Source: Thermoflexus sp. | GTDB lineage: Bacteria; Chloroflexota; Anaerolineae; Thermoflexales; Thermoflexaceae | Reading direction: 5' to 3' | NCBI RefSeq assembly: GCF_042408815.1 | Contig: NZ_JBHOQR010000005.1 | Span: 3,828 to 67,827, forward strand | DNA: 64,000 nucleotides | Shown: positions 18,701 through 50,587 of the stretch, one piece after another | Position numbering within the stretch: position 1 is the stretch's first letter | How the letters are laid out: each line of letters starts with the position of its first letter | The notes under the pieces: generated by a model | Databases searched by the model: none | The model's input: the letters and a program-made list of their open reading frames with translations, nothing else | What the model was told of the DNA's origin: nothing | Translations under genes and position numbers: made by a program

Positions 18701-21700
18701 ATGGGGATCTCCTGGGGACGATCGAGAGCCGCCACAGGGTTTTCCCGACGCCGGTGGCGGACGCTGCTCGCGCTGGCGCTGGGGATCGGCCTTCTGGCCC
18801 TCTTGGGGCTGGCGTGGCGAGGCATGGCGGCGGTGGCCCGCCCGCAGCCGGAGAGCTCCTCGATCTGCTTTTACATTGATCCTCTCGATAGCCGGGTCCG
18901 GTGCGCTCCTCGTTTCTTCTCTCAAGCCGCCACCACCATCACCGATCGGGTTTCCCTTCGCCTCCAGGCTCTGGTCGCCGGACCGACGGCCGAGGAACGG
19001 GCGGCTGGATGGTGGTCCCCCCTGCCCTCGGGAGCGCGTTTGGCCAGTTTCCAGTGGTCCGGTCATGGGCTCACGCTCTACCTGGAGCTGCCTGCCTCTT
19101 ATCTGGAGCGGACCGGCGGGACGGAGCCGATGCTCAATCCGTGGACCATCGATCAGGCGGCTTATCTCTTTCTACGGCATCTGGAGCCCTTCGGGGTGCA
19201 AAACGTGCAGTTGATGGCCCGGAACCCCCAGGATGGTCGATTTTATGCCCTCTCCTGGTTCCTCCGAGAACCCCCGCCGGTCAATAAACCCACTGAGCTT
19301 GCGCGGGCGAGGGGGGAGCCTCTGGCCCCTATGAGCGCTGCCGGCCAGCCCCCTGCCTACAGCCGCCCTCAAGCTCAGGGGTTCCTGAGCGGAAAGGCCG
19401 TTTATCTGAGCGCGGGCCACGGCTGGTACTGGTATGCGCCGGGCAGTCGCTGGTTGACTCAGCGGGGGAACACCAATGGGCTGGTGGAAGATCTGAACAA
19501 TGCGGAGACTGTCAACCAGTTCCTGATCCAGTATCTCTTTAACGCGGGGGCCGATGTCTGGCCAGTTCGAGAACGGGATATGAACCCCTGGGAAGGGATC
19601 GCGGACAATGATAACCCTCAGGTGTATCAGGAGCAGGGCTCCTGGTCCCCGGGCACCCTACCGGGCTATAACGGCGGCACCTACCGCACGACTCTGACAG
19701 CTCTGGGGGCGGTCACCGCCCAGGCCGTCTGGACCCTCATGCCGCCCCGGGACGGCATCTATGCCGTGTACGTCTGGTATACGAGTGGCTCGAACCGGAG
19801 CACTGACGCACAGTTCCTGATCGAGCATGCCGGGGGCCGCAGTGAGGTCCGGATCAACCAGCAGGGGCACGGCTACACTTGGCGCTATCTGGGCTCCTTC
19901 CCCTTCCGCGGCGGGCAGCCTGCCCGGGTGATCCTCACCAACCGGACCGATCGTCCGGAGAACCTGAACCGCGTGGTGGTGGCAGACGCCGTTCGAATCG
20001 GTGGGGGGATGGGCACCGTAACCGGGGATGGGCCCCCGCCCAGCCCCGGGCCGAGCGGGCGACCGCGCTGGGAGGAAGCCGCCCGCTACTGGGCGAAATA
20101 CCAGGGGGCTCCGTCCTCGGTCTACGATCCTTTCCAATGCTCCACTTATAGCGCATGCGGAGATTTGATCGATGACGTAACCGCTCGCCCCCGTTATGCG
20201 GAGTGGGAGCGAGAGCCCTTCGATGATCCGGTTTACTTCTCGTTCCACACGAACGCTTATAATGGGACCCTGCGAGGGACGGAATCGTATGTTTATGACA
20301 ACAGCGATCCGAACTACCGGCGAACGCCGGGAAGCTTGGAGCTCCAGGATGCGATCCACACCCAAGTGATCCAGGATATCCGGGCCGGCTGGGATCCGAA
20401 CTGGATTGACCGGGGGAAGAAACAGGCCAACCTGGGGGAATTGCGCCTCCTTTCGACGATGCCCGGTGTTCTCCTGGAAGCGGCGTTCCATGACAACCCG
20501 CAGGACGCCGCCGCGCTCAAGGATCCTCGCTTCGCTATGCTGGTGGCCCGGGCGATCTACAAGGGGATCGTGCGCTATTACGCGCAGCGGGATGGCCGCT
20601 CCCCAGTCTTCCTGCCGGAGCCTCCCCAGGCTCCGGTGGCCCGTCAAACAGGGCCAGGCCAGGTAACGCTTTCCTGGCAACCTTCGCCCAGCGATGGCGG
20701 TGTGCTCCTGGGCCATCCGGCCACGGCCTACAAGGTTTATACCAGCACCGACGGATTCGCCTGGGGGGATGGGATTCTCGTTAACGGTACCTCCTATATG
20801 CTTTCCGGTCTGCCCGAGGGCACGACGCTCTTCTTCCGCGTGACCGGCCTGAACGCGGGCGGCGAATCCTTCCCTACCCCGGTCGTCGGGGTGCGGGTTG
20901 GGCCATGGGGCGCGCCCCGGCTGCTCCTCGTGGACGGCTTCGATCGGCTGGACGGGGCGATGCGGCCGACAGAGGATCTGGGGGGAAGCCTGGGGATAGT
21001 GACGCGGATGCCGATCGCCCGAATGAACGCCTTCGATGCGCTGGCCCATGTAGGCCGCGCCCTCGCAATGCCCTTCGATGGGGCGACCGATGAGGCCGTC
21101 TCCGGCGGGTCCATCGGCCTGGAGGGCTATCCCATTGTCCTGTGGCTGCTGGGCGAGGAGGGATTCTCGGAACCGACCCTGGACGACGGAGCCCGGGCCC
21201 GGTTACGCAGCTTTCTGGCGAACGGCGGGCGGCTGATCCTCAGCGGGTCCAACGTGGGCCAGGATCTCCATCAGCGGGATCCGGGCTTTCTAACCGATGC
21301 CCTCCGGACAGGCTTCGTCGCCGACGACGCCGGGACCCGGACCGTCCGCCCAGTTTCGGGAGGCCTGCTGGACGGGATTGGGGATCTGACTCTGGATGAT
21401 GGAACGATGGGGAGCCACCGGGTTACCACGCCGGATGTGCTCGCCCCCGGGCGAGACGCGCAGGCTCTCATGCAGTATCCGGATGGGCAGGCGGCGGCGA
21501 CGTTCTATGGCGCGCCATGCCCACAGGTGGCTGTCTTTGGGTTCCCTCTGGAAAGCGCCTGGCCGATAGCGGCGCGCGCGGCCCTCCTCTCTCGATTGCT
21601 GGACGCGATGATCCAATGTGGAGCGCCCCCCGAGACCACGATCACGACCCCTGCCCCCAATGCCTTGCTGAACCAGGTCCCGGTGATCGCTGGAACCGCT

Positions 21701-22729
21701 TCCCCTTCGGACATCACAGGGGTTCAGGTGGCGCTTCAGCGGACAGCGGATCAGCAATGGTGGACGGGGAATGGATGGGGCGCGGGGCTGGTCTGGCTAA
21801 CCGCCACCGGGCGGCTTTCCTGGTCCTGGACGCCCCCATCCGATCTGGCGGATGGAACCTATGGCGTGCTGGCGCGGGCGGTGCGGGGGACGACGGTGGA
21901 TCCCACACCGGCGGCGGTCACCTTCACGCTGGATCGAACACCCCCCGGGGTGCCGACGCTGATCACCCCCACGGTCACCGCCACGTATACGCCGCCCATT
22001 CGCTTCGAGTGGGCACCGACCGGATCGGAGCCTCCCGCCGGGTACGTGCTCATCCTCAACAGCGCCCGCTTCACCGTGACGGCGACCAGTTTCATGGCCA
22101 ATCTGGTCCCCGGGGAGTATCAGTGGACGGTTGCCGCCTTCGACGCCGCGGGCAACCTCTCCAGCACACCGCCGCCCGTGCGGTTCTATGTCAGCCCGGG
22201 CGCTCGGGGATCCACACTGTATCTACCTCTGATCCTGCGGGGAGCGGAGACGACGCCGCCTCCACCGCCGGCCTGTGAGGAACGGCTGCGCAATGGAGGG
22301 TTCGAAGCCGATCTAACAGGGACCTGGGAGATCCTGAACCCGGGCGCTCCCATCGCGCGGATTCAGAGCCCGGTCTATGAAGGGCAGTGGGCCGTCCGCT
22401 TGGGCGATCTCCAGGCGACCTCCGCCTCTTACGCCACTCTCTGGCAGCGAGTGACCCTGGATGGCACCCGGGCCACCCTGACCTTGTGGCGTCTCCCGCA
22501 GATCCGGGATAGCGGAGATCGCTTCTACATCGGTTTCCGGAACGCACGCAATGAGTGGGTGCCTCTGCTGGTGGATCAGGCGAACACCGGGACATGGGGG
22601 CAAGTGAGCCTGGACCTGACGCCATATGTGGGGCAGATCATTACGCTGACGATCGGCGTTTACAATGATGGGAGGGGATTGGGGAGCGCGGCCGTTGTGG
22701 ATGGGGTGAGCCTGGAGGTTTGTCGTTAA
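18701..22729 (+). CDS. Giant (~1340 aa) membrane-anchored N-acetylmuramoyl-L-alanine amidase (Amidase_3) multi-domain protein
   Basis: TM anchor, GerM-like segment, split Amidase_3 motifs (YLSAGHGWYW; FSFHTNAYNGT..GTESYVY; LLEAAFHDNPQDA), FN3-like (VTLSWQPSP..YKVYTS), Ig-like repeats, C-terminal NGGFE module; ATG 18701 chosen. Confidence 0.85.
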   Translation: MGISWGRSRAATGFSRRRWRTLLALALGIGLLALLGLAWRGMAAVARPQPESSSICFYIDPLDSRVRCAPRFFSQAATTITDRVSLRLQALVAGPTAEERAAGWWSPLPSGARLASFQWSGHGLTLYLELPASYLERTGGTEPMLNPWTIDQAAYLFLRHLEPFGVQNVQLMARNPQDGRFYALSWFLREPPPVNKPTELARARGEPLAPMSAAGQPPAYSRPQAQGFLSGKAVYLSAGHGWYWYAPGSRWLTQRGNTNGLVEDLNNAETVNQFLIQYLFNAGADVWPVRERDMNPWEGIADNDNPQVYQEQGSWSPGTLPGYNGGTYRTTLTALGAVTAQAVWTLMPPRDGIYAVYVWYTSGSNRSTDAQFLIEHAGGRSEVRINQQGHGYTWRYLGSFPFRGGQPARVILTNRTDRPENLNRVVVADAVRIGGGMGTVTGDGPPPSPGPSGRPRWEEAARYWAKYQGAPSSVYDPFQCSTYSACGDLIDDVTARPRYAEWEREPFDDPVYFSFHTNAYNGTLRGTESYVYDNSDPNYRRTPGSLELQDAIHTQVIQDIRAGWDPNWIDRGKKQANLGELRLLSTMPGVLLEAAFHDNPQDAAALKDPRFAMLVARAIYKGIVRYYAQRDGRSPVFLPEPPQAPVARQTGPGQVTLSWQPSPSDGGVLLGHPATAYKVYTSTDGFAWGDGILVNGTSYMLSGLPEGTTLFFRVTGLNAGGESFPTPVVGVRVGPWGAPRLLLVDGFDRLDGAMRPTEDLGGSLGIVTRMPIARMNAFDALAHVGRALAMPFDGATDEAVSGGSIGLEGYPIVLWLLGEEGFSEPTLDDGARARLRSFLANGGRLILSGSNVGQDLHQRDPGFLTDALRTGFVADDAGTRTVRPVSGGLLDGIGDLTLDDGTMGSHRVTTPDVLAPGRDAQALMQYPDGQAAATFYGAPCPQVAVFGFPLESAWPIAARAALLSRLLDAMIQCGAPPETTITTPAPNALLNQVPVIAGTASPSDITGVQVALQRTADQQWWTGNGWGAGLVWLTATGRLSWSWTPPSDLADGTYGVLARAVRGTTVDPTPAAVTFTLDRTPPGVPTLITPTVTATYTPPIRFEWAPTGSEPPAGYVLILNSARFTVTATSFMANLVPGEYQWTVAAFDAAGNLSSTPPPVRFYVSPGARGSTLYLPLILRGAETTPPPPPACEERLRNGGFEADLTGTWEILNPGAPIARIQSPVYEGQWAVRLGDLQATSASYATLWQRVTLDGTRATLTLWRLPQIRDSGDRFYIGFRNARNEWVPLLVDQANTGTWGQVSLDLTPYVGQIITLTIGVYNDGRGLGSAAVVDGVSLEVCR

Positions 22730-27706: not shown

Positions 27707-27812
27707 AGCTTCCCCCTGCATCTTTACATTTCCCACGGCCCGGAGGGATCGGGGAAGGGGAGAAGAGCCATCCCCTTCTGGAATCCGGGCCAGCCGGCAC
27801 AAGAACCGGTCG

Positions 27813-29213: not shown

Positions 29214-29264
29214 CGCTCCACCTCCTTAACGTTTCCTCCATGGTGGGAGAGCCCCTGCCCACTT

Positions 29265-30467: not shown

Positions 30468-30538
30468 CGGATCTCCTCGACGGGCACAGTCTGGAATGCC
30501 TAAACCGATCGGAGGCCCACCCTTGTCCCACCCGGAGC

Positions 30539-31549
30539 TCAGCGGCATGGCTCCCGGGCGAATTGATCGGGACAGCCTGGCGTGTTATCTCGAGCCAAGC
30601 CGAAGCGTCCCGGAGGCGGAAGCGTGATCCCGATCCGCTGGATCAGCCAGCCCAACGTCACTGGATCTGTCCGCACCAGCTGGTTGTCTGTCGGATTGCG
30701 CAAGGCCAGATCTATCACGGCCCCCGATTCCCGTAGCCACTGCAGGATCAAGGCGTCCTGAGGTTCCACCAGCAGCGTGATATATTGTTGACGCGGCATG
30801 GGCGTGGGCGTCGGTGTGGGCCCAGGAGCGGGGGTCGGTCCGGGGGTTGGAGCGGGGCGGCGAGGCGACTCGAAAGGCCCCACGGAAAGAACTTCCACGT
30901 TCTGGAGGACCAGCTGGCTGACTGGGAAGATCGTCTGCTGGTCCGGCTTCACCACAGCGGCCTGAGCGGCAGCCCCGGGCTCCACCCCCAGAGCTTTCAG
31001 CCGGCTGAAAAGATCCTCATCCAGGATCTGAGGATAAAACTCTCCCTCCGCCGCCTGCTTAACGGGAACAAACCGGAACGTCACCAGGACATCCACCCGA
31101 TCTCCAGGCGCCAAGTTGAAGGCCACCGCGCCCGCCTCATCCACCGGGATGGGGAAGGCCACTTTACCGGGTGGCACGAAGAAGCTGGCCTCGGATCCCC
31201 GCCGTCCCACCTCCGCAGGCTGGACCGTCAGATCCTCCGGCACGATGGGCTTCTGTCGGGGGATATCCACCCGCGCCACCTTCCCGATCACCGCCTTGGG
31301 ATCGGTAAAGGCGCCTTCTGGAAGAACCTCCACCGGCCATCCCCGCAGCGTCACATCCGATTCGCTGATCACGGCGCCACGAGGGATGTTCTGTGCGGCA
31401 ATCACAATGGATTGCAGGAAGGGCGGCGTAGGGGTGGCCGTTGGAGCAGGCCCCGCCGCAAAGCGCGGCAACAGCCATAGCGCCGCTCCCATCAAGACCA
31501 GGATCAGCAGGATCAGCAGCAACAGCGTCCGATTTCTGCGCCGGCGCAT
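30539..31549 (-). CDS. cpaB: Flp pilus assembly protein CpaB/RcpC family
   Basis: N-terminal TM anchor, SAF-like segment (IVIAAQNIPRGAVISESDVTLRGWP), RcpC-like C-terminal part with a Pro/Thr insert. Confidence 0.85.
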   Translation of the reverse strand: MRRRRNRTLLLLILLILVLMGAALWLLPRFAAGPAPTATPTPPFLQSIVIAAQNIPRGAVISESDVTLRGWPVEVLPEGAFTDPKAVIGKVARVDIPRQKPIVPEDLTVQPAEVGRRGSEASFFVPPGKVAFPIPVDEAGAVAFNLAPGDRVDVLVTFRFVPVKQAAEGEFYPQILDEDLFSRLKALGVEPGAAAQAAVVKPDQQTIFPVSQLVLQNVEVLSVGPFESPRRPAPTPGPTPAPGPTPTPTPMPRQQYITLLVEPQDALILQWLRESGAVIDLALRNPTDNQLVRTDPVTLGWLIQRIGITLPPPGRFGLARDNTPGCPDQFAREPCR

Positions 31550-32580: not shown

Positions 32581-35500
32581 TCATGGGCCGCGCAGGACCA
32601 GCGGGAGGAACATTCGGAAGCTCCACCCGATCCATACTTCAAGGGTCTCGTTATTGCCCTCGTTGACCTCCATCACACAACCCCGTGCCGGATCCCCTAA
32701 CCCGGGAACCGGCGCATCCACCATCGCCTGCAAACGGGAGATCGAGATCGCCTCAGTGGTCGTGTAGACGAAGGTCTGGGAGAGGCTTTCCCCGGGAGCC
32801 AATCGCTGGGCAGGGATGCTGAAATAGCGGCTGGCGGCAGGGTTCCCATTGATCTTCAAGCCGATCAGCATCCACCACGGCGCGCAGCCCAGGGTGCCGC
32901 TGAGCGGACGGGCGGTTCCAGGGCCAATGTTGGTCACCCTCAATGTAAATGTAAGCGTTCGAGTAGGGTTGTCTTCCTGATACTGAATCGAATCCGGCAA
33001 GATGGCGGCCGTGAGATCCGGCCCGGCCAGGGCGGTGACGTCGGAGGCCTGGAAGACATCCATCAGGGGAACGCCGGCCGTCCCGAAGGAGCGGGCAATG
33101 ACCGTGTTGGTGAAGGCGACCACGTCGGAGAGATTGGCGGAGACGCTGATTTGAGCCTTCTGGACGAAGGAAACCGTGGCCCGCGGGCCCAGGGCGGGCA
33201 GCGTGATCACTGCCTGCCCCCACCCGACGGGCAGGTCCACGAAAGCAATCCATGGCCACCCGGTCAGCGTGTCGGTAATCCGAACATCCGTGACCGTCAC
33301 CCACCCGGTATTGGTGACCGTGACTGTGTAATAAAGTACATCTCCGATATCCGCCTGACTCCGGCCATCGGTTTTGGAGATCTCGAGAGCGTAGGGCTGA
33401 CGCACCAGGTGGGCAACACTCCCAAGCGGAATCGGGATCGCACCGGAGAGGGCCGCGGTGGCGGTGAGCCACACGCCATCGGCAATGAAAGCGGGATCCG
33501 TGATCCGCACGGTCCAGGTGAGGGCGGCAGCCATCCCCGCGCTTAGGCCGGGCAGGTCCCAGCGGAAGGTTGGCCATGGGTCCGTGAGCACCGAACCCAT
33601 GGAGACCTGCACGCCATTGGGAATCGGGACGATCGGGCTGGGAAGCTGGCCGAAGATCTCCAAAGCCCCACTGGCTGCCGACGCCGTGTTCGTCACTCGA
33701 AGCGTATAGGTGAGCAACGCCCCCGGGGAAACGATACTCCCGGCAGGCGGAAGAGCGCCGAGCGTGCCGGTCAGCGCCGCCACCGGATGGATAACTGGGT
33801 TGCTGGCAAGCGAGCCGAACTCATCGGTTTGCAACACGGCCTGGTTCTGGATCTCGCCACCTCCTGCGGATACGGTGACGGCGAAGGAGAACGTCAGAAT
33901 CCCGCCCGGGGCAAGGGAGGCAATTTCCCCCAGCCATCCATTGGAGGCGACCGTCCACGAGAGGCCCCCGGAAGCGGAAGCGGAGCCTCCCACATAAGCG
34001 GTTCCGGTAGGGAAGAGATCGACCAGACGGAGGCCGTGCAGAGTGGCGCCACTGTCGTTCGTCAGGACAACCGTGTAGGTGATCCGATCTCCCGGCCGCA
34101 CCGAGCTTCCTCCCGGGGGCATGGCTTGCTTCAACCAGGTGGGTGGCCTGTCTGGGACCTCATAGCGCAGATCGGCCCGGAGCAAGGAAGGCGCCGTGAG
34201 GGGGTTTGTGGTGCTGAGCGCCACTTCATACTGTAAGGATTGAACATAGAGATTGAGGGGAATGGAGAGCGTAACCGCCCCCGTCTCAGTGAGCGGTGTC
34301 CATGCGCTCCAATCACTCCAGGGGAAGCCATCCTGGCTCTGGGATCGAATACGAACTGCGGCGTCTGTTCCGGGCGGGCGCATGAACTGAAGATCCAGAG
34401 TCAACAACAGCCGTCGCTGATCCAGATGGAAGGGCGGGGCCAGATAGTGCCCATTGGATACGAAGAGGCCTGCTCCCTCCGCGCTCAGGCGGCCGGCGTT
34501 GATATGGGTCAGCGGAATGTTGGCATACCGGCCTCCGATCACATAAACCCAACCATCCGGCAACACCACCATGGCATGGGCGCTGCGAGGCGGCGTGATC
34601 AGGCTGGTCGCCGTCCAAGTGATGACCTCCCCCGTGTCCGCGAGCACACCCGCTCGCACATCCCGGCTGGCATCGCTGAAGTTGCTCTGTAGCCCTCCAC
34701 TAGTCAGTAAGAGACCGCGATAACCAATGGCGGCCAGTTCCACCAGATTGTTATCCAGGAGCGCCGTGCGCGTGAAGGGTCCAAGGAGCGTCCCGTCCCC
34801 CAGAGGCGCGAACCAGACCTCGAACAGAGGCAGGCTGCTCGTCCCGGTCATTCCTCCGATCACATAAAGAGCACCCTGCTCGGCGACCGCTGCGTGCCGC
34901 CACAGGGGATAGGGAAGCGTCCACGAAAGGACTTGCCAATGGGTGATCTGACCCGTGACCGGGTCAGGCCGCGCCGCATAGATGAGGTCACGAACCTGGA
35001 AGCCCTCTGAAATCCCCCCCAACACATAGATCCATCCACCCCATGCGACAACCGCCATGTTCGTCAGGCTGATGGGCAGAGAAGCCGTCGTCGTGAACGG
35101 CCCCAGGGAGCCGTCCGGCTGGATCCGGGCGTAGACCACCATCCGCTGCGGCGCCCCCGGGGCGATGGCCGGCTGGTTTTGCCCGCCGATCACATAGAGA
35201 AAGTTGTTCACCACCACCGCCCCCCCATATGCGATCCCGGAAGGGAAGAAGTCCGCGAGGTTTGTCGAAACCGTCACCCAGGGAGTGAGATCATGATCGG
35301 AGCGGACGGTGGCCGATTGCACAAGGAATGGGCCTGCGATCATGTCGTTGCTCGAGGCCAATCCTCCCATGACATAGAGGCGGCTCGCCGTATAGACGGC
35401 CATATGACCCCAACGGGGGATCAAGCCAGCCGTTACCACCGTGGTGATCCACTCTCCACTCAGCCCGGCCCGAAGGAGGGAGACGGCGCCATCTCCCATA

Positions 35501-35730
35501 TTCGCCAGCCCGGTACGGAGGAACTCTCCCGCGCTGAAATCGGCCCAGGTGGTCTGAGAGAGGGTCTGGACGCCCGCCTCAACCCGGCGGCCCATAGACA
35601 GAAGGAGAACAAGAAATCCCACCCCTCCCAGGAGAAGCCCCGCCACAACCCGATGCCAACCTCTGCGCATTCCCATACCCCGGATCCTGGGTGGAGAGAT
35701 CGAGATCGGACTCGCCGGAAGCCTCCTCAT
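32581..35730 (-). CDS. Large (1049 aa) membrane-anchored Kelch beta-propeller / DUF11-CARDB repeat protein
   Basis: TM anchor; at least 5 Kelch-like blades (RLYVMGG, FLYVIGG, WIYVLGG, ALYVIGG, WVYVIGG); DUF11/CARDB-like repeats (ITYTVVLTNDSG, LTYTLRVTNTAS, LYYTVTVTNTGW, LTFTLRVTNIGPG); C-terminus ..MFLPLVLRGP; ATG overlaps the tadG stop (ATGA). Confidence 0.8.
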   Translation of the reverse strand: MRRLPASPISISPPRIRGMGMRRGWHRVVAGLLLGGVGFLVLLLSMGRRVEAGVQTLSQTTWADFSAGEFLRTGLANMGDGAVSLLRAGLSGEWITTVVTAGLIPRWGHMAVYTASRLYVMGGLASSNDMIAGPFLVQSATVRSDHDLTPWVTVSTNLADFFPSGIAYGGAVVVNNFLYVIGGQNQPAIAPGAPQRMVVYARIQPDGSLGPFTTTASLPISLTNMAVVAWGGWIYVLGGISEGFQVRDLIYAARPDPVTGQITHWQVLSWTLPYPLWRHAAVAEQGALYVIGGMTGTSSLPLFEVWFAPLGDGTLLGPFTRTALLDNNLVELAAIGYRGLLLTSGGLQSNFSDASRDVRAGVLADTGEVITWTATSLITPPRSAHAMVVLPDGWVYVIGGRYANIPLTHINAGRLSAEGAGLFVSNGHYLAPPFHLDQRRLLLTLDLQFMRPPGTDAAVRIRSQSQDGFPWSDWSAWTPLTETGAVTLSIPLNLYVQSLQYEVALSTTNPLTAPSLLRADLRYEVPDRPPTWLKQAMPPGGSSVRPGDRITYTVVLTNDSGATLHGLRLVDLFPTGTAYVGGSASASGGLSWTVASNGWLGEIASLAPGGILTFSFAVTVSAGGGEIQNQAVLQTDEFGSLASNPVIHPVAALTGTLGALPPAGSIVSPGALLTYTLRVTNTASAASGALEIFGQLPSPIVPIPNGVQVSMGSVLTDPWPTFRWDLPGLSAGMAAALTWTVRITDPAFIADGVWLTATAALSGAIPIPLGSVAHLVRQPYALEISKTDGRSQADIGDVLYYTVTVTNTGWVTVTDVRITDTLTGWPWIAFVDLPVGWGQAVITLPALGPRATVSFVQKAQISVSANLSDVVAFTNTVIARSFGTAGVPLMDVFQASDVTALAGPDLTAAILPDSIQYQEDNPTRTLTFTLRVTNIGPGTARPLSGTLGCAPWWMLIGLKINGNPAASRYFSIPAQRLAPGESLSQTFVYTTTEAISISRLQAMVDAPVPGLGDPARGCVMEVNEGNNETLEVWIGWSFRMFLPLVLRGP

Positions 35731-37037
35731 CGGAACAGGAAGAGTTGAGGAGGGGTGGTCGGGCAGGCGTTATCGTTATAGGTCAGCTGGAAGTTTGCCC
35801 CGGAGACATCGACTTCGTAGCCGAAGATGGCGCCGTTCCCGGTGAACCCCTGGCTGCCCGAGAGGTTCACCAGACCGTTCGGGGCGTAGATCAGGCCTTC
35901 CCATGCGATCCGGGAATACGAGAGCTGGATCGCCCCGTTGTTGGTGTCATTCGAGGTCGAGAAGAACAGGAGCTGCCCCTTGCCATCGGGCTCCTTGTAG
36001 AATCCTTTAAAGTAAGCCTGATCGTTGTTCGAACTCGTAGACTTGATCGATCCATTGGTGACGACAGTGATGGTGACCGTCCCCCCACCCTGGATCGTGA
36101 CATCGCCGTTGACCACGTAGAGCCCATCGCAAAGTTTATAGGAGCCCCCACCGTTGCTCCCGGGGGAGGGGCAGGAGCCGCTGGATTTCAGGGTGATGGA
36201 ACCGTTGAAATAATACCGCCGGCTGGAATCGACCTGGTTCCATTTCGCGCCACCGGGCAGGAAGTCCTCATACCGGTAGAACGGCGGCATCGGGATGTAG
36301 CTGCCCTGCTGGGTGGTCTGGCATGTCCCGTTTCCTTTCTTCTGAGTCACGTAATCGCAGACCCCGTTGATATACATTTGCTGGCTGATGTTAATATCGG
36401 CGTTGGAATGGATGTTGCCGTTGACCACCCCAGCCTGGCCGCCGCCAGTGGCCTTGAGCACGTTGGGCTGGCAGTTGCCGGTACACCCCGCAAAAATCGC
36501 CCAGCCATTGCAAGAAACCGGAGGCTGATAGACGGCCACCGCCTGGGCGCTCACCCGCAGGTTCGCCTGGCCGATCACTTGCGCGATGAAGGCCGAGAAG
36601 GGATTCCAGACCACCACGCGAATCCCCTTGACCTCTTGGGTGCCGATCTTCGCCGGCACGAAACCACCACCGACCGGACTGAGGACATTCCCATCCGCGT
36701 CGGTGTAGAAGATCTCGATATTGTTGTTATAAGCGTCTCCCGGTTGACCCGAGGTGTCGGGAATGCCGTGGGCCTCCACCGCAGCGTTCACCGCCTGCCG
36801 CAAGGATGCCTCCGGGCAGCCATACCCATGGGGATTACTGCACCATGGCTGGGGGTTCCAGAGAAAGCGGGCCCCGGTCAGGGCCCCAGCGTCCGCCCCG
36901 TTCTGAGCCCGTCGGCGCTGGCCGTAGGCATTGCTGCCATCCAGGGCCAGGGCCGTAAGGGCCAGAAGGCCGATGAAGGCGATCGCGATGAGCACCAGTG
37001 CCTGTCCACGATTCCACCCTTTCATCCTTCCACCCAT
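35727..37037 (-). CDS. tadG: TadG-like pilus assembly protein (Tad N-terminal domain)
   Basis: N-terminus MKGWNRGQALVLIAIAFIGLLALTALALDGSNAY.. matches the TadG-like N-terminal pattern; AGGAGG RBS 6 nt before ATG 37037. Confidence 0.8.
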   Translation of the reverse strand: MGGRMKGWNRGQALVLIAIAFIGLLALTALALDGSNAYGQRRRAQNGADAGALTGARFLWNPQPWCSNPHGYGCPEASLRQAVNAAVEAHGIPDTSGQPGDAYNNNIEIFYTDADGNVLSPVGGGFVPAKIGTQEVKGIRVVVWNPFSAFIAQVIGQANLRVSAQAVAVYQPPVSCNGWAIFAGCTGNCQPNVLKATGGGQAGVVNGNIHSNADINISQQMYINGVCDYVTQKKGNGTCQTTQQGSYIPMPPFYRYEDFLPGGAKWNQVDSSRRYYFNGSITLKSSGSCPSPGSNGGGSYKLCDGLYVVNGDVTIQGGGTVTITVVTNGSIKSTSSNNDQAYFKGFYKEPDGKGQLLFFSTSNDTNNGAIQLSYSRIAWEGLIYAPNGLVNLSGSQGFTGNGAIFGYEVDVSGANFQLTYNDNACPTTPPQLFLFR

Positions 37038-37069
37038 GGGAGCGCCTCCTGATCGGTCCGCATCACACC

Positions 37070-37558
37070 TTATGGGCACGCTCCGGATCCATGGTTGAGG
37101 GCCCGCTGCACCGCATAAGCCCGCAGCCTCACCTCCGGGCCGAACACCACCTGCATCACAGGCGTGATCATCGTAAATGAATATGAGGTGGAAACCGTGA
37201 TCGGCGTGCCGAAGCAGATCTGTCCCGGATTGTTCGGCATGATCACGATCGTGACCCGGTAGGGATCCAGAGGAGTTCCGGGCGTGTGCTGGATCGCGAT
37301 GAACGTTCGATCGTAAGCGTTATTGGGGGTCGCGCATGAAGGCCCGTCGGCCGCGCTGATGCAGCGCGGATTCATCGCCGCGTAGAGCGCTCCCTCGCCC
37401 GCCGCATCCTGGATCGCCACCCACGCCATATACATCCGGCCCAGATCCAGCACCCCGGTGAGCAACAGCAACAACACGGTGGCCGCCAGAGCGAACTCCA
37501 CCAGGCTCTGGCCGCGCTGGCGATGATCATGAAAGCAGTGATTCCAGCCGGATCCCAC
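37070..37558 (-). CDS. tadE: TadE-like pseudopilin
   Basis: ..RQRGQSLVEFALAATVLLLLLTGVLDLGRMY.. TadE N-terminal pattern; GTG start assumed. Confidence 0.75.
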   Translation of the reverse strand: MGSGWNHCFHDHRQRGQSLVEFALAATVLLLLLTGVLDLGRMYMAWVAIQDAAGEGALYAAMNPRCISAADGPSCATPNNAYDRTFIAIQHTPGTPLDPYRVTIVIMPNNPGQICFGTPITVSTSYSFTMITPVMQVVFGPEVRLRAYAVQRALNHGSGACP

Positions 37559-37576
37559 TGTCCTCTCCCCCCGCGC

Positions 37577-38137
37577 TCACGGCTTGGGCATGGCGATCCC
37601 GCTGATCGGAACCACGGAGCGCATCCCGGCGAAACGGAGCGGGAGGTTCGATACAAAGGGCCGGATCAGAGGGGTGGCCGCGCTCACCTGGGATTGAACG
37701 TCCACATAGACCAGGTCGTTCAGGGCCAGGACATCTGTAGTAGGCAGCCCGATCTGCGCCGGATCCGAAGAGCACCTGCCCAAGGGAAGGAAGGATCCAC
37801 TCCCATCGGGACGACGATACTCCACCGTGATCGTCACCTGGCTCCGAGGCGTCAACGCCAATGTCCCATAAGCCCGGTTCAGGACCTCGTTGCACTCGGC
37901 GATGGTCACCTTCCCGCGATCCGCATCATTGCTCCGATGGATGGTTACGGCGGCCGCTCGCAACGCTTCCCGCGCCGCGTTGGAGACCTCGGTGTAGATG
38001 AAGAGGACCCGTCCGAACTCCATGATGCCCAGCATGAACAGCAACAGCACCGGGAAGACCAGGGCGAACTCCACCAGGCCCTGCCCACGATTCCTGGATC
38101 CCCTCCACGATCGTCTCGCCAGCCCCCGGAAAGTCAT
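37577..38137 (-). CDS. tadE: TadE-like pseudopilin
   Basis: ..SRNRGQGLVEFALVFPVLLLFMLGIMEFGRVLF.. TadE N-terminal pattern. Confidence 0.8.
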   Translation of the reverse strand: MTFRGLARRSWRGSRNRGQGLVEFALVFPVLLLFMLGIMEFGRVLFIYTEVSNAAREALRAAAVTIHRSNDADRGKVTIAECNEVLNRAYGTLALTPRSQVTITVEYRRPDGSGSFLPLGRCSSDPAQIGLPTTDVLALNDLVYVDVQSQVSAATPLIRPFVSNLPLRFAGMRSVVPISGIAMPKP

Positions 38138-38226
38138 AAATCTCTTACCTCCTTTGAGGAAACCGCCTCGCCCGGCGGGGAGGTTACGGGTCCCGTTCTT
38201 CCCGCCTCTACCGGACCCTCGGGCTA

Positions 38227-38254
38227 TTGACGGTTTGAGAAATTTTAATATAAT
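38227..38254 (+). promoter_or_regulatory. Near-consensus sigma70 promoter for the plus-strand tad operon
   Basis: TTGACG(38227-38232), 16-nt spacer, TATAAT(38249-38254), in a 190-bp AT-rich divergent spacer. Confidence 0.55.
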
Positions 38255-38328
38255 GTGGAGGGAGAAGGGGCGAAAGAAGGTATATTTATAAACCGTTTTC
38301 GAGGGCCTTTAGGATACGGGAGGGATCG

Positions 38329-38931
38329 ATGCGTCGATGGACATGGAGAGGACGGAGAGCCCAGAGCATCGTGGAGCTAGCGATCCTGCTGCCCCTCTTC
38401 CTGATCCTCATCGCCGGCCTAACCGAACTGGGGTTCGCGATCGCTGCATATCTTTCTCTCCAGGATGCCGTGCGGGAGGCCGCCCGCTTCGGGGCCGACG
38501 GCGATCCTTGTCTGTATGCCGATCATCAGGAGGATCCCCGAGACCCTGGCGCCGTTTGCGACAGTGACCTGTTCATGACCCCGGTTTCCCAACGCTTCGA
38601 TGAAGCCTTCCGTCCATACACGATGAACGCGAGCCTGGGGGACGATCTGGTGATCTCCGCCTTCGGCATCCGACAGGACGGCACGCTGGCCTGGCGGCTC
38701 CCCCGCAATGCCCCTAACGGGTGGTCCCGTTTCCGCAATCGGAGCTCCCGGGTCACGGATGCGGCGATCGCCGCCCAGATCGGCCACTCCCCCAGCAAAG
38801 GGGTACTGGTGGTGGAGGCGTATTACCACTACCGCCAGCGTCTGGGCCTGTTCACCTGGGCGTTCCCGGAAATCATCCCGATGTATGCATCGGCCTGGAT
38901 GCCGCTGCCTTCGGTGGATCCGATGGAATGA
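38329..38931 (+). CDS. tadE: TadE-like pseudopilin
   Basis: ..RGRRAQSIVELAILLPLFLILIAGLTELGFAI.. TadE N-terminal pattern. Confidence 0.8.
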   Translation: MRRWTWRGRRAQSIVELAILLPLFLILIAGLTELGFAIAAYLSLQDAVREAARFGADGDPCLYADHQEDPRDPGAVCDSDLFMTPVSQRFDEAFRPYTMNASLGDDLVISAFGIRQDGTLAWRLPRNAPNGWSRFRNRSSRVTDAAIAAQIGHSPSKGVLVVEAYYHYRQRLGLFTWAFPEIIPMYASAWMPLPSVDPME

Positions 38932-38990
38932 ACGAGGCGCAGGTCGGCAGGGCTTCTCCGGCGCCCCAAGGGAGATCAGGAGGTGGAGCT

Positions 38991-40502
38991 ATGCGCCGCC
39001 GCGGGCAGATTGTGGTTCTCTTTGCCTTGATGCTGGTGGGGCTGCTGGCCCTGGCCGGCCTGGCGATGGATGGCGCCCGCCTCTATGCTGCCCGACACCG
39101 CCTGCAGCACGCCCTGGATGGAGCGGCCCTGGCCGGCTCCAACCAGTTCCGCGTCGGCCGCACCCTTGCCGATATCCAGCAGGCCGCCCGGGATTTCCTG
39201 ACCGCTCAGGGCTTCGATGTGGCCACCATCCGGGTCTATACATGCGATGACCCAGGCCCTTACGCCGCGGAGCTCTGCACCACTCCCCGTCGCAAGCTGG
39301 TGCGCGTCGAAGCCGAGGTCGTCGTCCCTATGACCTTCATGCGGGTGGTGGGTTGGTCGAGCGCGCGGCTCTCCGGCTCCGCGACCGGAGAGGCAGCCTC
39401 CGTCGATCTGGTGCTGATCATTGACAACTCGGAGTCAATGGCTTATGACACCCGGATGGTGCTCACTCAGGGTAACCCCATCGTCTGCATTCCCACGGAC
39501 TCCCCCAACCCCAATCCGGAATGCCCCAAACCCCAGAAGCCGCACTTCTGCAACCCCCATGATATCTGCGAGCCTTTCCGCTCCGTGCGCCAGGCGGCTC
39601 GCGAGTTCGCCGAGCGGATGTATTACCCCTACGATCGCGTAGCTGTGGTCTCCTTCGACCGTCAAGCCCGCCTGCTGGTGGATCTCAACGGGGGGACGAG
39701 CCTCGCCACTGTTCAGAACGCGATCCAGAGCATCCAGGTTTACGACCCCGCCCAGAACGCCCAAACTGCGAAATGCGCCGGGATGGATTGCACCTCTGGA
39801 AATTGCCGTCCGGTTTCTGTGCTGGTGCCGGGGCCAGACACTGACCCACGCCCATGCCCCAGTAGCAACGTCCAAGGAGCTCTCCGCTTGGCCTACAATA
39901 TCCTGGCCACCCAAGGACGGCCAGCGGAGACCGGCGCCCTTTGGGCCATCGTGATGCTGAGTGACGCCGCGGCCAACGCCACGGATCCCTCTCCAAGCTC
40001 GCCGGATCCGGTAGCGAGGGACTTCGGGCTCTGCCCTCGCTACAACCCACCCCCCAGCTGGGGTGCGCCCACCTGGTACTGGGGGGATCCGGGGTACCGT
40101 CCGTTTTGTCAGGATGGCGACTTCGAAACGCGTCATCCCCCATCTGATCCCCGATATGATGCGGAGGACGCCGCGCTCGATATGGTGGATGTGCTCCGAG
40201 AGGCCAACATCGTGGTCTTCTCCATTGGCTATGGCAGCGGAATGCACAACCTGAACGTACGCCCGGGCCAGGGACGGGATCCAGACGTTGGGGAGAAGTT
40301 CATGCGCTACTTGGCCGACAGCACCGATGGCAACAATCAGGCGGACTGCCTGCAGAGCGGAAGCGACTGGTTCAGCCCAGGGGCGGTCTGGAAGCCGCAG
40401 GGGCAGTCATGCAGCAACTATTTCTACGCCCCGGACGCTGCAACGCTGCAGCAGATCTTCCGTGAGATCGCCCGCCGGATTTTCACCCGTTTGAATCGAT
40501 AG
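38991..40502 (+). CDS. tadG: TadG-like N-terminal domain fused to von Willebrand factor A domain
   Basis: MRRRGQIVVLFALMLVGLLALAGLAMDGARLY.. (Tad N-terminus); MIDAS motif DLVLIIDNSESM; GGAGG RBS before ATG 38991. Confidence 0.85.
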   Translation: MRRRGQIVVLFALMLVGLLALAGLAMDGARLYAARHRLQHALDGAALAGSNQFRVGRTLADIQQAARDFLTAQGFDVATIRVYTCDDPGPYAAELCTTPRRKLVRVEAEVVVPMTFMRVVGWSSARLSGSATGEAASVDLVLIIDNSESMAYDTRMVLTQGNPIVCIPTDSPNPNPECPKPQKPHFCNPHDICEPFRSVRQAAREFAERMYYPYDRVAVVSFDRQARLLVDLNGGTSLATVQNAIQSIQVYDPAQNAQTAKCAGMDCTSGNCRPVSVLVPGPDTDPRPCPSSNVQGALRLAYNILATQGRPAETGALWAIVMLSDAAANATDPSPSSPDPVARDFGLCPRYNPPPSWGAPTWYWGDPGYRPFCQDGDFETRHPPSDPRYDAEDAALDMVDVLREANIVVFSIGYGSGMHNLNVRPGQGRDPDVGEKFMRYLADSTDGNNQADCLQSGSDWFSPGAVWKPQGQSCSNYFYAPDAATLQQIFREIARRIFTRLNR

Positions 40503-40538
40503 ACGGGTTTTCCGTCGCATGGCTGAGGAGGGGGAATC

Positions 40539-41429
40539 ATGCGCCGAATGGCCCAAGGGACGCTGGAGTTCGCCGTGGCCCTGCCGATCTTTCTCCTTCT
40601 GGTTTTCATGGTTATCGAGCTGGCCCGGGTGTTCTACGCGTGGGCGACCATCGAGAATAATGCCCGGGCGGCGGCCCGCTATCTCTCCACCGGGCAATAC
40701 GACCCGGCCTTCTGCCTCAGCGGCTGCGCCGATGAGGCGGATCGGGAACAGGCTCGGCTCCGGGCCGGCCTGGAACGAGGTCGGGAGATCCTTTACGGCC
40801 TCCTGATCACGCAGTTCGGAGAGCAAGCCGGGGGGCCGGGCTCCGATGCCCCAGGTTTCTATGGGGTCACGATCTGCAGCAGCCGGCCGGGCTTTGAGTT
40901 CGATCCGGCTACGCTGCGCTGCGTCCCAGGGAACGATGCCGGGGGCCCTGGGGATCGGGTCGTGGTGGTGGTCCGCCACAACCATATGATCATCACCCCC
41001 CTCCTCCGGCCCATTGTGGCCTATATCCCCCTGATCGCCCGCCGCGAGGTGATCAACGAGCGCTTCCGGACCGTCCGCCTGTTGGGGCTGCCGCCGGAGA
41101 TCCCGACGGTCGTGCCGCCGCCGACGCCTACGTTCACGCCGGCTCCCACGGATACCCCCACGCCCCCGCCGCCGCCGACGGCTACGCCGACGCCAACAGC
41201 TACCTTCACGCCCACGCCCACTCGCACCCCGACGCCGACGGTGTGCCCGCCCGGGGTTTGCACCCCCACCCCCACTCCTACACCCACCCGTACCTGGACG
41301 CCCACGCCGACTCCTACCCGCACGCCCACCCGTACCCCGACGCCAGTGTGGACGCCCACCCGCACGCCCACCCGCACCCCGACGTCCACGCCGACGATGA
41401 CGCCCACGCCGGGTGGCTTTGACGGGTGA
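40539..41429 (+). CDS. tadE: TadE-like pseudopilin with ~110-aa C-terminal Pro/Thr-rich tail
   Basis: [33 protein letters not shown].. then [28 protein letters not shown]...[11 protein letters not shown]. Confidence 0.75.
41110..41415 (+). repeat. Low-complexity Pro/Thr(-Arg) codon repeat within the tadE-like CDS
   Basis: Iterated ACG/ACC-CCN(-CGC) units encoding TPTPTRTP; it also creates a spurious Arg/Gly-rich antisense ORF. Confidence 0.8.
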
Positions 41430-41457
41430 ACAGAGCGAAAGAGAGGAGGAGTCAAAG

Positions 41458-42609
41458 ATGCAAAGGGGGAGGGTCGTCCGGCTTATGGGACTCATTCTAA
41501 TAGGACTGGGGCTTCTGGGCGCCCTGATCGGACGCGGGAGCGCCCAGACCCTTCCGCCCCCGCCCCCTCCTCCATGGCCGGCTCCTCCTGCCCCGGCGCC
41601 GGGGATGTATGCTGCTGAGACGCCTCCCAACGCCCGATGGCAGACCATGACCATCGGCATCGCGGATCCGGGAAACCCCTATCTCCCGATCACCCGGGAA
41701 AACCGGGTTGAGAATGCCACCGTGAGCTCCCTGCGCCTTGGGTTTGGAGGGCTCACATTCCCGGAGCTGATCACCCGTGTGGAGGCCTGGGCAGAGCCTC
41801 AGGATGGCAGCATCACCTGGACGGTGGAACCCACTGGGGTGGTGTTCTATAATGTGCAGCCGACTCATACCCTCTTCGCCTCCTGGGTCACCACGGCCTA
41901 CGCCCGATATGAGCCGCCGGAATACGAGATCACCGTTGGGACCATCGGGCGGGAGGGCTTTGATTTCGCCACCGGGATGGCGGTGCAATTGCCCGCGGGC
42001 GTCTATACGGTTACCTATGCCCGGATCGTCTCCACCAGCCACGAGGGGTTGAGCCCTTTTCCCCTTTACGTGCCCGGAGGCCTCGTCTGGCCGATGGCGC
42101 GCTTCACCACCACCCCAGAGAGCCGGGCATGGGTCACATATACCTTCCGCCTGGGGGATCTGCGGAATCGATCGGAAGCCACGCTCCCGGATCTGATCCC
42201 CCTCACCCTGACCTTGCGGATCCATAGGGGAAGCACTCAGGTGAACGCATGGATCCGCAATGCGGGCGCCGCCGCGGTCCCATCACGGGTCGGCGGCTTT
42301 CTGGTCGCTTTGCAGCAACGCGCCCCTGGCGATCCCCCGGCCAGCCCGACGGACGGCGGGGGGTTCGAGACGTGGATGCAGGGACCCACCGGTGTGTGGC
42401 TTCCTCCTTTGAGCCCCGGCCACGAGGTTCTGATCACGGGAACCGCCTCGCTCCAGCCCGGTCGATGCCTGTTCCTGAACGTGGATGTGGATCCCTTCGG
42501 GGAAAGCCCTCTGACCGGGCGGGTCTGGGAGGCCCGGGAGGACAACAACGTGGCCGGGATCTGCCCACACGTCCTCTTCCTCCCTCTGATCCTGCGCAGT
42601 CCTCCGTAA
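41458..42609 (+). CDS. Secreted/anchored protein with C-terminal CARDB-like domain, unknown function
   Basis: N-terminal signal/anchor (LMGLILIGLGLLGALIGRGSAQ), poly-Pro, C-terminal CARDB-like block (PDLIPLTLTL..NAGAAAV...EAREDNN), ends ..LFLPLILRSPP; GAGGAGGA RBS. Confidence 0.65.
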   Translation: MQRGRVVRLMGLILIGLGLLGALIGRGSAQTLPPPPPPPWPAPPAPAPGMYAAETPPNARWQTMTIGIADPGNPYLPITRENRVENATVSSLRLGFGGLTFPELITRVEAWAEPQDGSITWTVEPTGVVFYNVQPTHTLFASWVTTAYARYEPPEYEITVGTIGREGFDFATGMAVQLPAGVYTVTYARIVSTSHEGLSPFPLYVPGGLVWPMARFTTTPESRAWVTYTFRLGDLRNRSEATLPDLIPLTLTLRIHRGSTQVNAWIRNAGAAAVPSRVGGFLVALQQRAPGDPPASPTDGGGFETWMQGPTGVWLPPLSPGHEVLITGTASLQPGRCLFLNVDVDPFGESPLTGRVWEAREDNNVAGICPHVLFLPLILRSPP

Positions 42610-47349: not shown

Positions 47350-47425
47350 TGGAGCGGGCGACGGGACTCGAACCCGCGGCCTTTGGCTTGGGAAGCCAAC
47401 GCTCTACCACCTGAGCTACGCCCGC
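47350..47425 (-). tRNA. tRNA-Gly (anticodon CCC), CCA encoded
   Basis: Reverse complement folds as a cloverleaf: acceptor GCGGGCG/CGCCCGC, D-arm GCTC..GAGC, anticodon loop TTCCCAA, T-arm GCGGGTTCGAGTCCCGT, 3' CCA. Confidence 0.95.
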
Positions 47426-47527: not shown

Positions 47528-47725
47528 TCAGCGCTTCGTCCGAAAGCCCAGCAACGCGTAGAGCGGGCACCAGCCCACCAGAGAGGTCAGGATGAAGATC
47601 ACACCGACGACACTGAGGATGACGCCCAAGATATTGAAGTGGAGGACGAAGGCGGAGAGCAGGATAAACACCACGGCCACGATGAGCCGCACGACCCGAT
47701 CCCAGCTGGCCATATTCACCATCAT
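47528..47725 (-). CDS. DUF2892 (YgaP-like) small membrane protein
   Basis: 65 aa, D-R-x-V-R..two TM helices..GWCPLYALLG pattern typical of DUF2892. Confidence 0.7.
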   Translation of the reverse strand: MMVNMASWDRVVRLIVAVVFILLSAFVLHFNILGVILSVVGVIFILTSLVGWCPLYALLGFRTKR

Positions 47726-47776
47726 GGTTTCACCTCCCGCAAGAGATCGAACGGAATCCCCCTGAACCTCACCAGC

Positions 47777-48523: not shown

Positions 48524-48778
48524 ACGGACCTCCTCCTGGGGTGAGAGGGTTTCGGGCTCGATCCGCCGGCCTCCTCCTGGGAGCCTGGAGGGGGTGGGCG
48601 AAAACCCACCCCCTCTCCCCAGTCGGAGGGCCCGATGGCGCGGACCGTTGCCCCTCACTTCCCTTAGATGCAGAGGGCTGGTTGAGGTGACAAATCCGCC
48701 TTCGCCTTGCGAAGAGAGAAGGGGGCGGAGCGAGCATTTCCCCAGAAGCTGGATGTGCGATATAATAAAAGTGCCCGA

Positions 48779-49162: not shown

Positions 49163-49271
49163 TGTGCGGAAGTGGGCGGGGTCCTGGAGTGGGCCTCGCC
49201 CACTTCCCGTTTATAAGGCCGGGGACCTGCGCACGGGGGTTCAATATTTTCCCGCGCCGACAGGGCGTGCC

Positions 49272-50447: not shown

Positions 50448-50587
50448 CTGGCGCGGTTGGCCGTTCCCCCGATTCCGATAGCCCTCCCCGGCCTCTCTAT
50501 CCGATGCCGGAAGTCGGAACCGCGCCCGCTCCAGCGCCCCCGGTCCAAAGGGCTTCCCCAAAATCTGGGAACGACCGCGGCATCCCA

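Follow-up and report, generated by a model that had tools for sequence, protein, structure and literature searches.

We found three copies of the motif [FY]LPL[IV]LR in a 64-kb stretch of the genome of Thermoflexus sp. (Chloroflexota), the whole of which is called the window below. Two are canonical C-terminal copies on proteins of the Tad locus, and the third is an internal copy in a giant amidase, where a CBM-like module comes after it. The motif is the YLP-box, which is known to NCBI curators, yet unpublished and functionally uncharacterised. Our preferred reading, held tentatively and just short of an even chance, is that the YLP-box is a Chloroflexota surface-sorting or retention tag without a membrane helix, which would be read in trans by an envelope factor, with non-covalent docking as the preferred mode.

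The motif in the window and its NCBIfam models

The three sites had been picked out in an earlier note on this DNA, and translation reproduced their strings and coordinates exactly. In the Kelch/DUF11 protein the core FLPLVLR (32590..32610, minus strand) is followed by Gly-Pro and the stop codon at 32581-32583, so that the C-terminus reads ...EVNEGNNETLEVWIGWSFRM-FLPLVLR-GP, with WSFRM directly before the box. In the 383-residue Tad-operon protein the core FLPLILR (42577..42597, plus strand) is followed by Ser-Pro-Pro and the stop codon (...EAREDNNVAGICPHVL-FLPLILR-SPP, with PHVL directly before the box). The tails after the Arg are 2 and 3 residues long, respectively. The amidase copy, YLPLILR (22220..22240, plus strand), lies between the last Ig-like (Big_13-type) domain and a Pro-rich linker, 162 residues upstream of the stop (...GARGSTL-YLPLILR-GAETTPPPPPAC), and fits the internal class that makes up about 20% of the copies elsewhere. 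As read from the translations, all three carriers begin with a basic region and then a hydrophobic stretch, a predicted signal peptide or anchor, in agreement with the earlier proposal that they are exported or anchored.

A six-frame search of the whole 64 kb with the regular expression LP[LIVM][IVLM][LMIVF][RK] returned these three sites only, and the back-translated motif pattern gave three matches in the window against none in 100 dinucleotide-preserving shuffles. With a looser expression, the ~17,900 residues of the ~47 likely window genes yielded a single extra match, a weak internal YIPLIAR at residue 161 of a TadE-like protein (40539-41429, plus strand), which is probably due to chance. 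The codons vary among the three copies (CTA/CTC, CCT/CCG, ATC/GTC, CGG/CGC), which indicates selection on the peptide and not on the DNA, and a DNA-level repeat as the origin of the motif is ruled out by the same variation.

The motif had been put forward as an undescribed signal, a status that it does not have: two models of it are already present in NCBIfam release 20, the 11-position NF050076.1 (sort_motif_YLP), which has a cutoff of 15 bits, and the 10-position NF053834.1 (ultrashort_CTERM), with a cutoff of 10 bits. Each bears the description 'YLP-box putative sorting motif-containing protein', a name only, with no partner or mechanism. These models hold the identical motif and align to the Kelch and amidase boxes of the window and to the canonical ...VYLPLVLRNYR endings of other Chloroflexota; the window copies differ in scoring near the cutoffs, and the RefSeq names of their proteins stay 'hypothetical protein' or amidase. 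On NF050076 the Kelch/DUF11 box scores 16.8 bits as a 20-mer, 15.5 bits as a 32-mer and 14.2 bits in a 59-residue context, a borderline and context-dependent membership. The amidase box, with 15.3 and 14.4 bits on NF050076 and 14.8 and 13.9 bits on NF053834, is a member. The tail of the 383-residue protein (...CPHVLFLPLILRSPP), a Phe variant, is missed by both NF050076 and NF053834; with 13.6 bits, the tail of its orthologue P0007 (...TVYLPLVLRGGP), a Tyr variant, passes the NF053834 cutoff of 10. The 383-residue protein can therefore be counted as a YLP-box member by orthology and regular expression, not by hidden Markov model. The designation as a candidate sorting signal was right in kind, though not new. 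YLP and Chloroflexota are both absent from a preprint catalogue of orphan C-terminal sorting signals (bioRxiv 10.1101/2023.06.07.544157).

Taxonomic range, position and export

The distribution of the motif was determined with two independent scans. The reference scan, covering one genome per GTDB species with the pattern TWYCTNCCNCTGRTYCTGCG, gave at least 119 matches. Among the matches listed, 18 of the 28 from Chloroflexota are located 0-6 residues before a stop codon, versus 0 of 91 from other taxa (Fisher p = 1.4e-14), a C-terminal hit being one whose open reading frame (ORF) runs at least 50 codons upstream of the motif. Within the same set the C-terminal matches are confined to Chloroflexota, and the 18 come from Anaerolineae, Anaerolineales, Chloroflexia, Chloroflexaceae and unclassified Chloroflexota. 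Off-target matches fall in conserved unrelated frames, for example in Streptomyces and in a mycobacterial protein. The Streptomyces frame (...PPIALFLPLILRRCVL...) fits the DNA pattern at L003, L025, L027, L037 and about 20 other loci; the matching ORFs are variable in length and often short, look like an alternative frame of a conserved gene and are unrelated to the Chloroflexota tag. A phage link was rejected: 2.9 million viral contigs contain just two occurrences of the pattern, in a spurious frame.

The metagenome scan, with [IVM]YLPL[IV]LR, gave 107 unique closed cases, and in 84 of them a tail of 0-5 residues follows the Arg. Tail lengths are 0 (19 cases), 1 (11), 2 (27), 3 (24) and 5 (3), and a length of 4 was never seen among the 84 (L121-L240). 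The commonest tails are none, NR and NYR. Of the basic residues, one Arg is invariant, and a second, common in tails, is supplied by NR or NYR in 21/84 and is absent from the window tails GP and SPP. The bias to the extreme C-terminus or to positions ahead of Pro-rich linkers, which had been suggested from the window copies, is borne out and is strong.

Carriers are also strongly associated with export. A signal-peptide-like start, as called heuristically from the N-terminus, is present in 53 of 68 complete C-terminal carriers (78%) and in 93 of 373 other ORFs of the same loci (25%), an odds ratio of 10.6 (p = 1e-16). The domains that precede the box are very diverse: when the last 330 residues of 86 non-redundant carriers were scanned, 86 different Pfam families were found, with DUF11 in 16 carriers, PKD in 9, CARDB in 5 and fn3 in 5, besides LVIVD, beta-propellers, BNR, beta-helix and cadherin-like domains. 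Non-exported carriers, a lack of positional bias and a CARDB strand had been named beforehand as observations that would speak against a signal; they were checked through the taxon and position counts, the signal-peptide counts and the Pfam counts, and the motif stands.

A small secreted family of 83-145 residues was observed among the carriers (L123, L130, L144, L157, L171, L185, L235, L240). Its members are built from a signal peptide, a Gly-rich unit 'Y.L.W.T.DGGG...GY.L.GT.GQ...GY.L.GGFW.G' in one or two copies, and the YLP-box. Two of them (L185, L130) weakly match the pilus tip protein PamT of the candidate phyla radiation (CPR) in NCBIfam with 28.6 bits, far below the cutoff of 240, and the match covers the signal peptide.

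Extended logo and internal copies

A logo was built from 113 unique C-terminal instances, in which positions -1 to +6 are partly fixed by the search patterns and the outer positions are unbiased. The consensus is [G/P]-[Y/R/H]-[R/Q/K]-[V/I]-[Y/F]-L-P-L-[V/I]-L-R-[N/G]-(Y)-(R): Gly or Pro at -4, Tyr, Arg or His at -3 (36% aromatic), Arg, Gln or Lys at -2 (51% basic) and Val or Ile at -1, then the core Y/F-L-P-L-V/I-L-R, usually followed by Asn or Gly.

Internal copies make up about one fifth of the metagenome matches. Some arise by chance, as in a NUDIX family with IYLPLILRPQYDG and in a few membrane proteins. The convincing ones form three groups: copies followed by a Pro/Thr-rich linker (such as RNYPPTPPTPTPT... 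or RNYPAAPTPTP...), copies with a CBM-like module 10-15 residues downstream, and the N-proximal copies of L028 and L133, which are preceded by a signal-anchor with a P/S-rich stalk and have the catalytic domain behind them. Because the residues after internal copies (RNYP..., RNYT...) resemble free C-terminal tails, these copies may have originated by fusion of extra modules onto a C-terminal tag.

The amidase of the window is of this kind. It is a 1342-residue exported N-acetylmuramoyl-L-alanine amidase (18701..22729, plus strand; WP_376788957.1), identified by Pfam, NCBIfam, translation and exact-sequence look-up, with the domain order Golvesin_C, Amidase_3, fn3, Ig-like, YLP-box, linker and CBM-like module. 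A signal peptide or signal-anchor (...RRRWRTLLALALGIGLLALLGLAWRGMAAVA; 18701..18838, plus strand) is predicted from the translation. The Pro-rich linker behind the box, GAETTPPPPPA (22241..22273, plus strand), is matched in the relatives by a comparable short linker, Pro-rich in most of them (P0013-P0017, P0020). The Cys-bracketed C-terminal 'NGGFE' jelly-roll module (22274..22726, plus strand) was modelled with AlphaFold2 from a 270-residue query and a 9-sequence alignment, its core reaching a predicted local distance difference test score (pLDDT) of about 85-92, and appears to have a CBM-like fold; Foldseek aligns it to CBM16, CBM61 and CBM4/22 structures with target-normalised TM-scores of 0.67-0.73. 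In the same model residues 96-117, which connect the Ig-like domain to the confident jelly-roll and include the box (Y102-R108), are of low confidence. The motif is kept in the amidase relatives L035, P0049 and P0013-P0017. Where relatives have a box between the last Ig-like domain and 'NGGFE', it takes the forms WLPLVTR, WLPLVMR, YLPLVLK, YLPLIFK and WLPVVVY.

The 'NGGFE' module recurs 10-15 residues after an internal box in P0013-P0017, P0020, L135, L174, L176, L180 and L239. In P0022 and P0023 a degenerate box (LYMPLVKA, VYLPEIRA) stands behind the module and ahead of a Pro/Thr-rich linker.

Internal copies bring to mind an endoproteolytic maturation or hinge site, at which a secreted or membrane protease would cut and free modules from each other or from an N-terminal anchor. 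Module boundaries beside flexible Pro/Thr linkers (the amidase, P0013-P0020, L132, L138, L187) and the N-proximal copies of L028 and L133 are where such a site would be expected. However, about 80% of the copies have only 0-5 residues after the Arg, and 19/84 have none, so that a cut would have nothing to free, yet the box is strictly conserved, and we consider this explanation improbable.

The box probably lies outside the preceding fold

Both C-terminal carriers of the window show a CARDB-type E-x-x-E-[GD]-N-N ending 10-15 residues ahead of the box, which raised the question of whether the motif is part of that domain. The first carrier (32581..35676, minus strand) is a 1031-residue exported protein with Kelch beta-propeller, DUF11, DUF7507 and CARDB-like regions, assigned by Pfam, translation and exact-sequence look-up; it is RefSeq WP_376788967.1, a 'hypothetical protein', with a signal peptide or N-terminal anchor predicted from its translation (MGMRRGWHRVVAGLLLGGVGFLVLLLSMGRRVEAG; 35572..35676, minus strand). 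Its Pfam CARDB match ends at residue 1028 of the 1049-residue ORF and the box starts at 1041, a gap of 13 residues. Homologues keep the box (P0058, P0038 and P0059), and the endings seen among them are ...GGYRVFLPLILRGP, ...GGYSVFLPLILR and ...AGFRVFLPLVLRNW. A HMMER search with the Kelch C-terminal domain adds little, the box being kept in one orthologue out of 11 matches.

The second carrier (41458..42609, plus strand), the 383-residue protein, matches no Pfam or NCBIfam family and has a C-terminal beta-sandwich with a CARDB-like ending. By exact-sequence look-up it is WP_376788974.1, in RefSeq a 'hypothetical protein', and a signal peptide (MQRGRVVRLMGLILIGLGLLGALIGRGSAQ; 41458..41547, plus strand) is predicted from its translation. 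Its box is kept in 12 of 12 orthologues, down to 53% identity, with endings of the form [FY]LP[LM][IV]xR plus 3-6 residues, and across 13 orthologues L375, P376 and R380 are invariant and the flanks vary; all source-named homologues belong to the Thermoflexus lineage or to Anaerolineae. In the AlphaFold2 model, made from a 13-sequence alignment, the last beta-sandwich domain has pLDDT values of 80-90 and its last strand is at 365-368, the box occupies 374-380, and residues 375-383 have pLDDT below 50 and no secondary structure.

The motif is thus not the last strand of CARDB (PF07705), because CARDB is found in only 5 of the 86 carriers; in addition, the Kelch CARDB match ends before the box, and the modelled domain of the second carrier ends at 368. 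The independence of the motif from this fold is in line with what had been proposed, whereas the E-x-x-E-[GD]-N-N context, also pointed out at first, is the CARDB ending of those two carriers and no part of the signal.

Evidence against the tag reading, and a structural alternative

Several observations weigh against a tag that is read in trans. Full-text searches found no paper on a bacterial YLP-box and no experimental data, and in the PDB there is no chain with the motif at E <= 10. The DNA patterns used in the scans fix parts of the motif and favour high-GC codons, which leaves the taxon coverage incomplete. A Pro/Thr-rich stalk ahead of the box is present in only 1 of 119 C-terminal boxes (L125), unlike typical wall anchors, and the idea of a wall-spanning stalk before an anchor was rejected on this count. 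All-against-all BLAST clustering of the loci (23, then 136; 750 ORFs) revealed no syntenic sorting enzyme. Finally, the alignments behind the AlphaFold2 models are shallow (13 and 9 sequences), and the low pLDDT values are weak evidence for disorder; in the amidase model a short strand at residues 99-103 takes in the first half of the box and may pair with the last Ig strand, and the logo shows a Val-rich stretch and then the Gly/Pro turn at -4, which would also fit a hairpin on the preceding domain.

The last two points would suit an element acting in cis, namely an edge strand or hairpin at the terminus that would cover the last beta-sandwich and protect it from aggregation, with no trans partner. 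Most carriers end in beta-rich domains, and a Pro with flanking Arg residues is a classic feature that halts beta-sheet extension. On the other hand, a fold-specific cap would co-vary with the fold, and here one near-invariant sequence is found behind 86 or more unrelated Pfam family types; the box has pLDDT below 50 in both models, it also follows a Pro/Thr-rich stalk (L125) or sits in N-terminal linkers, and it is restricted to one phylum while the same domains occur everywhere. A purely structural role seems hardly probable, and of the three roles offered in the earlier note (a protease or transpeptidase site, a strand for complementation, a structural cap) the cap is the least likely.

Comparison with known sorting systems

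The LPXTG/sortase, PEP-CTERM/exosortase, PGF-CTERM/archaeosortase, GlyGly-CTERM/rhombosortase and MYXO-CTERM/myxosortase systems resemble the YLP-box in that a short C-terminal signature is carried by unrelated Sec-exported surface proteins of one lineage, and tripartite sorting domains occupy an equivalent position in homologous domain arrays. The YLP-box differs from the tripartite domains in having no membrane helix and no clear Arg cluster, in measuring ~11 residues in all, in occurring also internally and in having no known cognate enzyme. The absence of a membrane helix, already noticed in the window copies, is borne out, with only L-[V/I]-L, Arg and 0-5 residues after the L-P pair, and the basic tail of classical sorting domains appears to be lacking too.

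By analogy with these systems, the box could be a covalent sorting signal, in which a dedicated Chloroflexota peptidase or transpeptidase, sortase- or exosortase-like, would cut in or beside the box and link the cargo to peptidoglycan, lipid or a sheath polymer, the short L-[V/I]-L-R end standing in, on a miniature scale, for the hydrophobic and basic parts found in classical signals. As in LPXTG, the L-P pair is invariant; the box is C-terminal on many signal-peptide proteins per genome, and NCBI files it as a sorting motif, one model being named 'ultrashort_CTERM'. Moreover, distant homologues of the carrier domain arrays in other phyla end at the same position in MYXO-CTERM (P0024, P0027) or in the Por_Secre_tail of the type IX secretion system (T9SS; P0062), which would weakly support a functional equivalence. 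But there is no membrane-spanning segment, as the Pro is followed by 3-4 hydrophobic residues and then by Arg and 0-5 residues, a form that departs from the tripartite design of known systems (bioRxiv 10.1101/2023.06.07.544157). Among the 25 most frequent of 137 Pfam families in 144 flanking ORFs there is no sortase, rhomboid, CPBP or PapD-like family, and cleavage at internal or N-proximal copies would discard modules such as the GHL10-like enzyme of L028 or a 464-residue region of L078. Taken together, we regard covalent sorting as unlikely.

The beta-signal of outer-membrane proteins (BamA/BamD) and the T9SS C-terminal domain share with the YLP-box the placement of targeting information at the C-terminus of exported proteins. 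The beta-signal, however, belongs to a barrel and closes with an aromatic residue, unlike YLP tails, which end in R, RN, RNR, RNYR and similar, and the T9SS domain is folded and 70-80 residues long. Each of the two depends on an outer membrane, which Chloroflexota are considered to lack.

Gene neighbourhood and the Tad locus

In the window, the Tad genes TadB/C, CpaF, TadZ and CpaB are located at 25795-31549 (minus strand), and two pseudopilin sets follow at 35727-38137 (minus strand) and 38721-41429 (plus strand). The Kelch/DUF11 gene has the same direction as the TadG/TadE-like genes immediately upstream. The 383-residue protein is a conserved operon member, in the order TadE, TadG(VWA), TadE, the carrier and G5/DUF348, which is kept in a relative at 55% identity.

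The region 32581-38137, with the Kelch/DUF11 gene, a TadG-like gene and two TadE-like genes, is absent from the syntenic Tad locus of a Thermoflexus-lineage relative (55% identity; L241, L242), where a single 165-residue gene stands in place of the Kelch/DUF11 block. This points to a lineage-specific gain or loss of the second pseudopilin and adhesin block. Since the Tad locus of the relative is without the Kelch/DUF11 gene and its pseudopilin set, the Tad setting describes the two window carriers and is incidental to the motif. A specific tie to Tad loci, suggested at first, is also at odds with the presence of the motif on at least 86 Pfam family types across many Chloroflexota, among which no conserved neighbour was found.

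The recurrent non-carrier clusters in 110 non-redundant locus groups (136 loci) are SARP/BTAD-AAA regulators (9), response regulators (6) and one unannotated cluster (5), and two cohesin-domain neighbours were found among the flanking ORFs. Ten unannotated or nearby window proteins compared with NCBIfam yielded no YLP-box-named family and no candidate sorting enzyme. A partner, if there is one, would be encoded elsewhere; a partner encoded away from its cargo is usual for many-to-one sorting systems.

The pseudopilin operons also bear on a donor-strand role, in which the box would insert as a beta-strand in the incomplete fold of another subunit and so build surface polymers or tie cargo to a pilus or sheath. 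The donor strands of chaperone-usher and CPR Pam pili are likewise hydrophobic segments of ~10 residues on Sec-exported proteins, and for Pam pili membrane-anchored chaperones and assembly have been proposed in an organism without an outer membrane (bioRxiv 10.64898/2026.03.03.709456). In the logo, the aromatic residue at -3 in about a third of the copies extends the alternating hydrophobics (-3, -1, L+1, L+3, L+5), two window carriers lie in Tad pseudopilin operons, and the small Gly-rich box proteins weakly resemble PamT. This resemblance is nevertheless far below threshold, neither an acceptor fold nor a chaperone turned up, the carriers are for the most part large enzymes or adhesins that do not resemble pilins, and the central Pro disturbs regular strand hydrogen bonding; the absence of the Kelch/DUF11 block and pseudopilin genes from the relative's Tad locus speaks against it as well. 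We judge a donor-strand function very unlikely.

Proposed mechanism

For the surface tag read in trans, a mechanism of three steps can be envisaged. The carrier would be exported by Sec through its N-terminal signal peptide, with which the association is statistical. The cargo would then fold outside the membrane, with the tag left exposed at a linker boundary or as a tail just behind the last domain, as the AlphaFold2 models and the varied preceding domains suggest. One shared envelope component would read the tag and keep or place the cargo in the multilayered, outer-membrane-less envelope, in our preferred version by non-covalent docking of the extended hydrophobic peptide, with Arg on both sides, into a receptor groove. 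The Chloroflexota envelope is multilayered and is increasingly considered to be without a true outer membrane (PMC13319060; bioRxiv 10.1101/2025.08.19.671072).

A common factor acting in trans is suggested because unrelated signal-peptide proteins of a single phylum share a near-invariant sequence of 11 residues, which lies outside the folds and in most cases at the terminus. The MYXO-CTERM and T9SS endings at the equivalent position in distant homologues (P0024, P0027, P0062) speak weakly for the tag as well. Docking is preferred over cleavage and ligation because there is no membrane-spanning segment, and because a protein may end with the box itself, which also occurs internally or N-proximally near flexible linkers. 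What had been proposed in the earlier note survives, then, as a recurrent signal on exported proteins, without the undescribed status, the Tad link and the E-x-x-E context.

Other features of the window and of carrier loci

Carriers cluster in eleven loci, with 2-3 of them within 8-14 kb (L014, L122, L128, L150, L153, L159, L160, L163, L170, L213, L229), and the SARP/BTAD-AAA regulators that adjoin carriers are large proteins. Repeats of ~370 bp with 92% identity are present in L208 (897-1263 and 3418-3789) and also in L217, L184, L219 and L237; the duplicated stretch comprises the 3' end of a YLP-box gene (...QAQAVYTTAPYLYTDFAPNRIYLPLILR and the stop codon) plus DNA downstream of it, and some copies are without a start codon. 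A diversity-generating retroelement was rejected as their source, as the L208 repeats differ by transitions in both directions and not by adenine-specific changes.

The window also contains a gene for transfer-messenger RNA (tmRNA; 48779-49163, plus strand), whose tag peptide ANRDYAALPLAA is unrelated to the box, so that a tmRNA tag was discarded as an explanation, and a tRNA-Gly(CCC) gene (47350-47425, minus strand). Two long ORFs, at 47639-48544 and 48495-50588, match no family and are unusual in composition, and the latter runs across the tmRNA gene on the other strand. Neither is likely to be a gene.

Implications for Chloroflexota

In its widest form, the proposal would make the YLP-box a new class of surface display: a position-tolerant tag of 11 residues, without a membrane helix or a folded anchor domain, through which hundreds of exoproteins would either dock on an envelope or sheath receptor specific to Chloroflexota or be ligated by a non-membrane enzyme, and whose internal copies would be functional second attachment points and not relics. 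We put this forward as a doubtful extension. Chloroflexota are abundant filamentous bacteria with an unusual envelope, and an orphan tag of this kind gives an experimental route to the surface retention of their large hydrolases and adhesins. The tag could serve as bait for its receptor or enzyme, help to predict surface proteomes from metagenomic data and perhaps act as a minimal display tag in thermophilic hosts. The three window proteins that it flags as envelope-targeted are the giant peptidoglycan amidase and two from the Tad-pilus locus.

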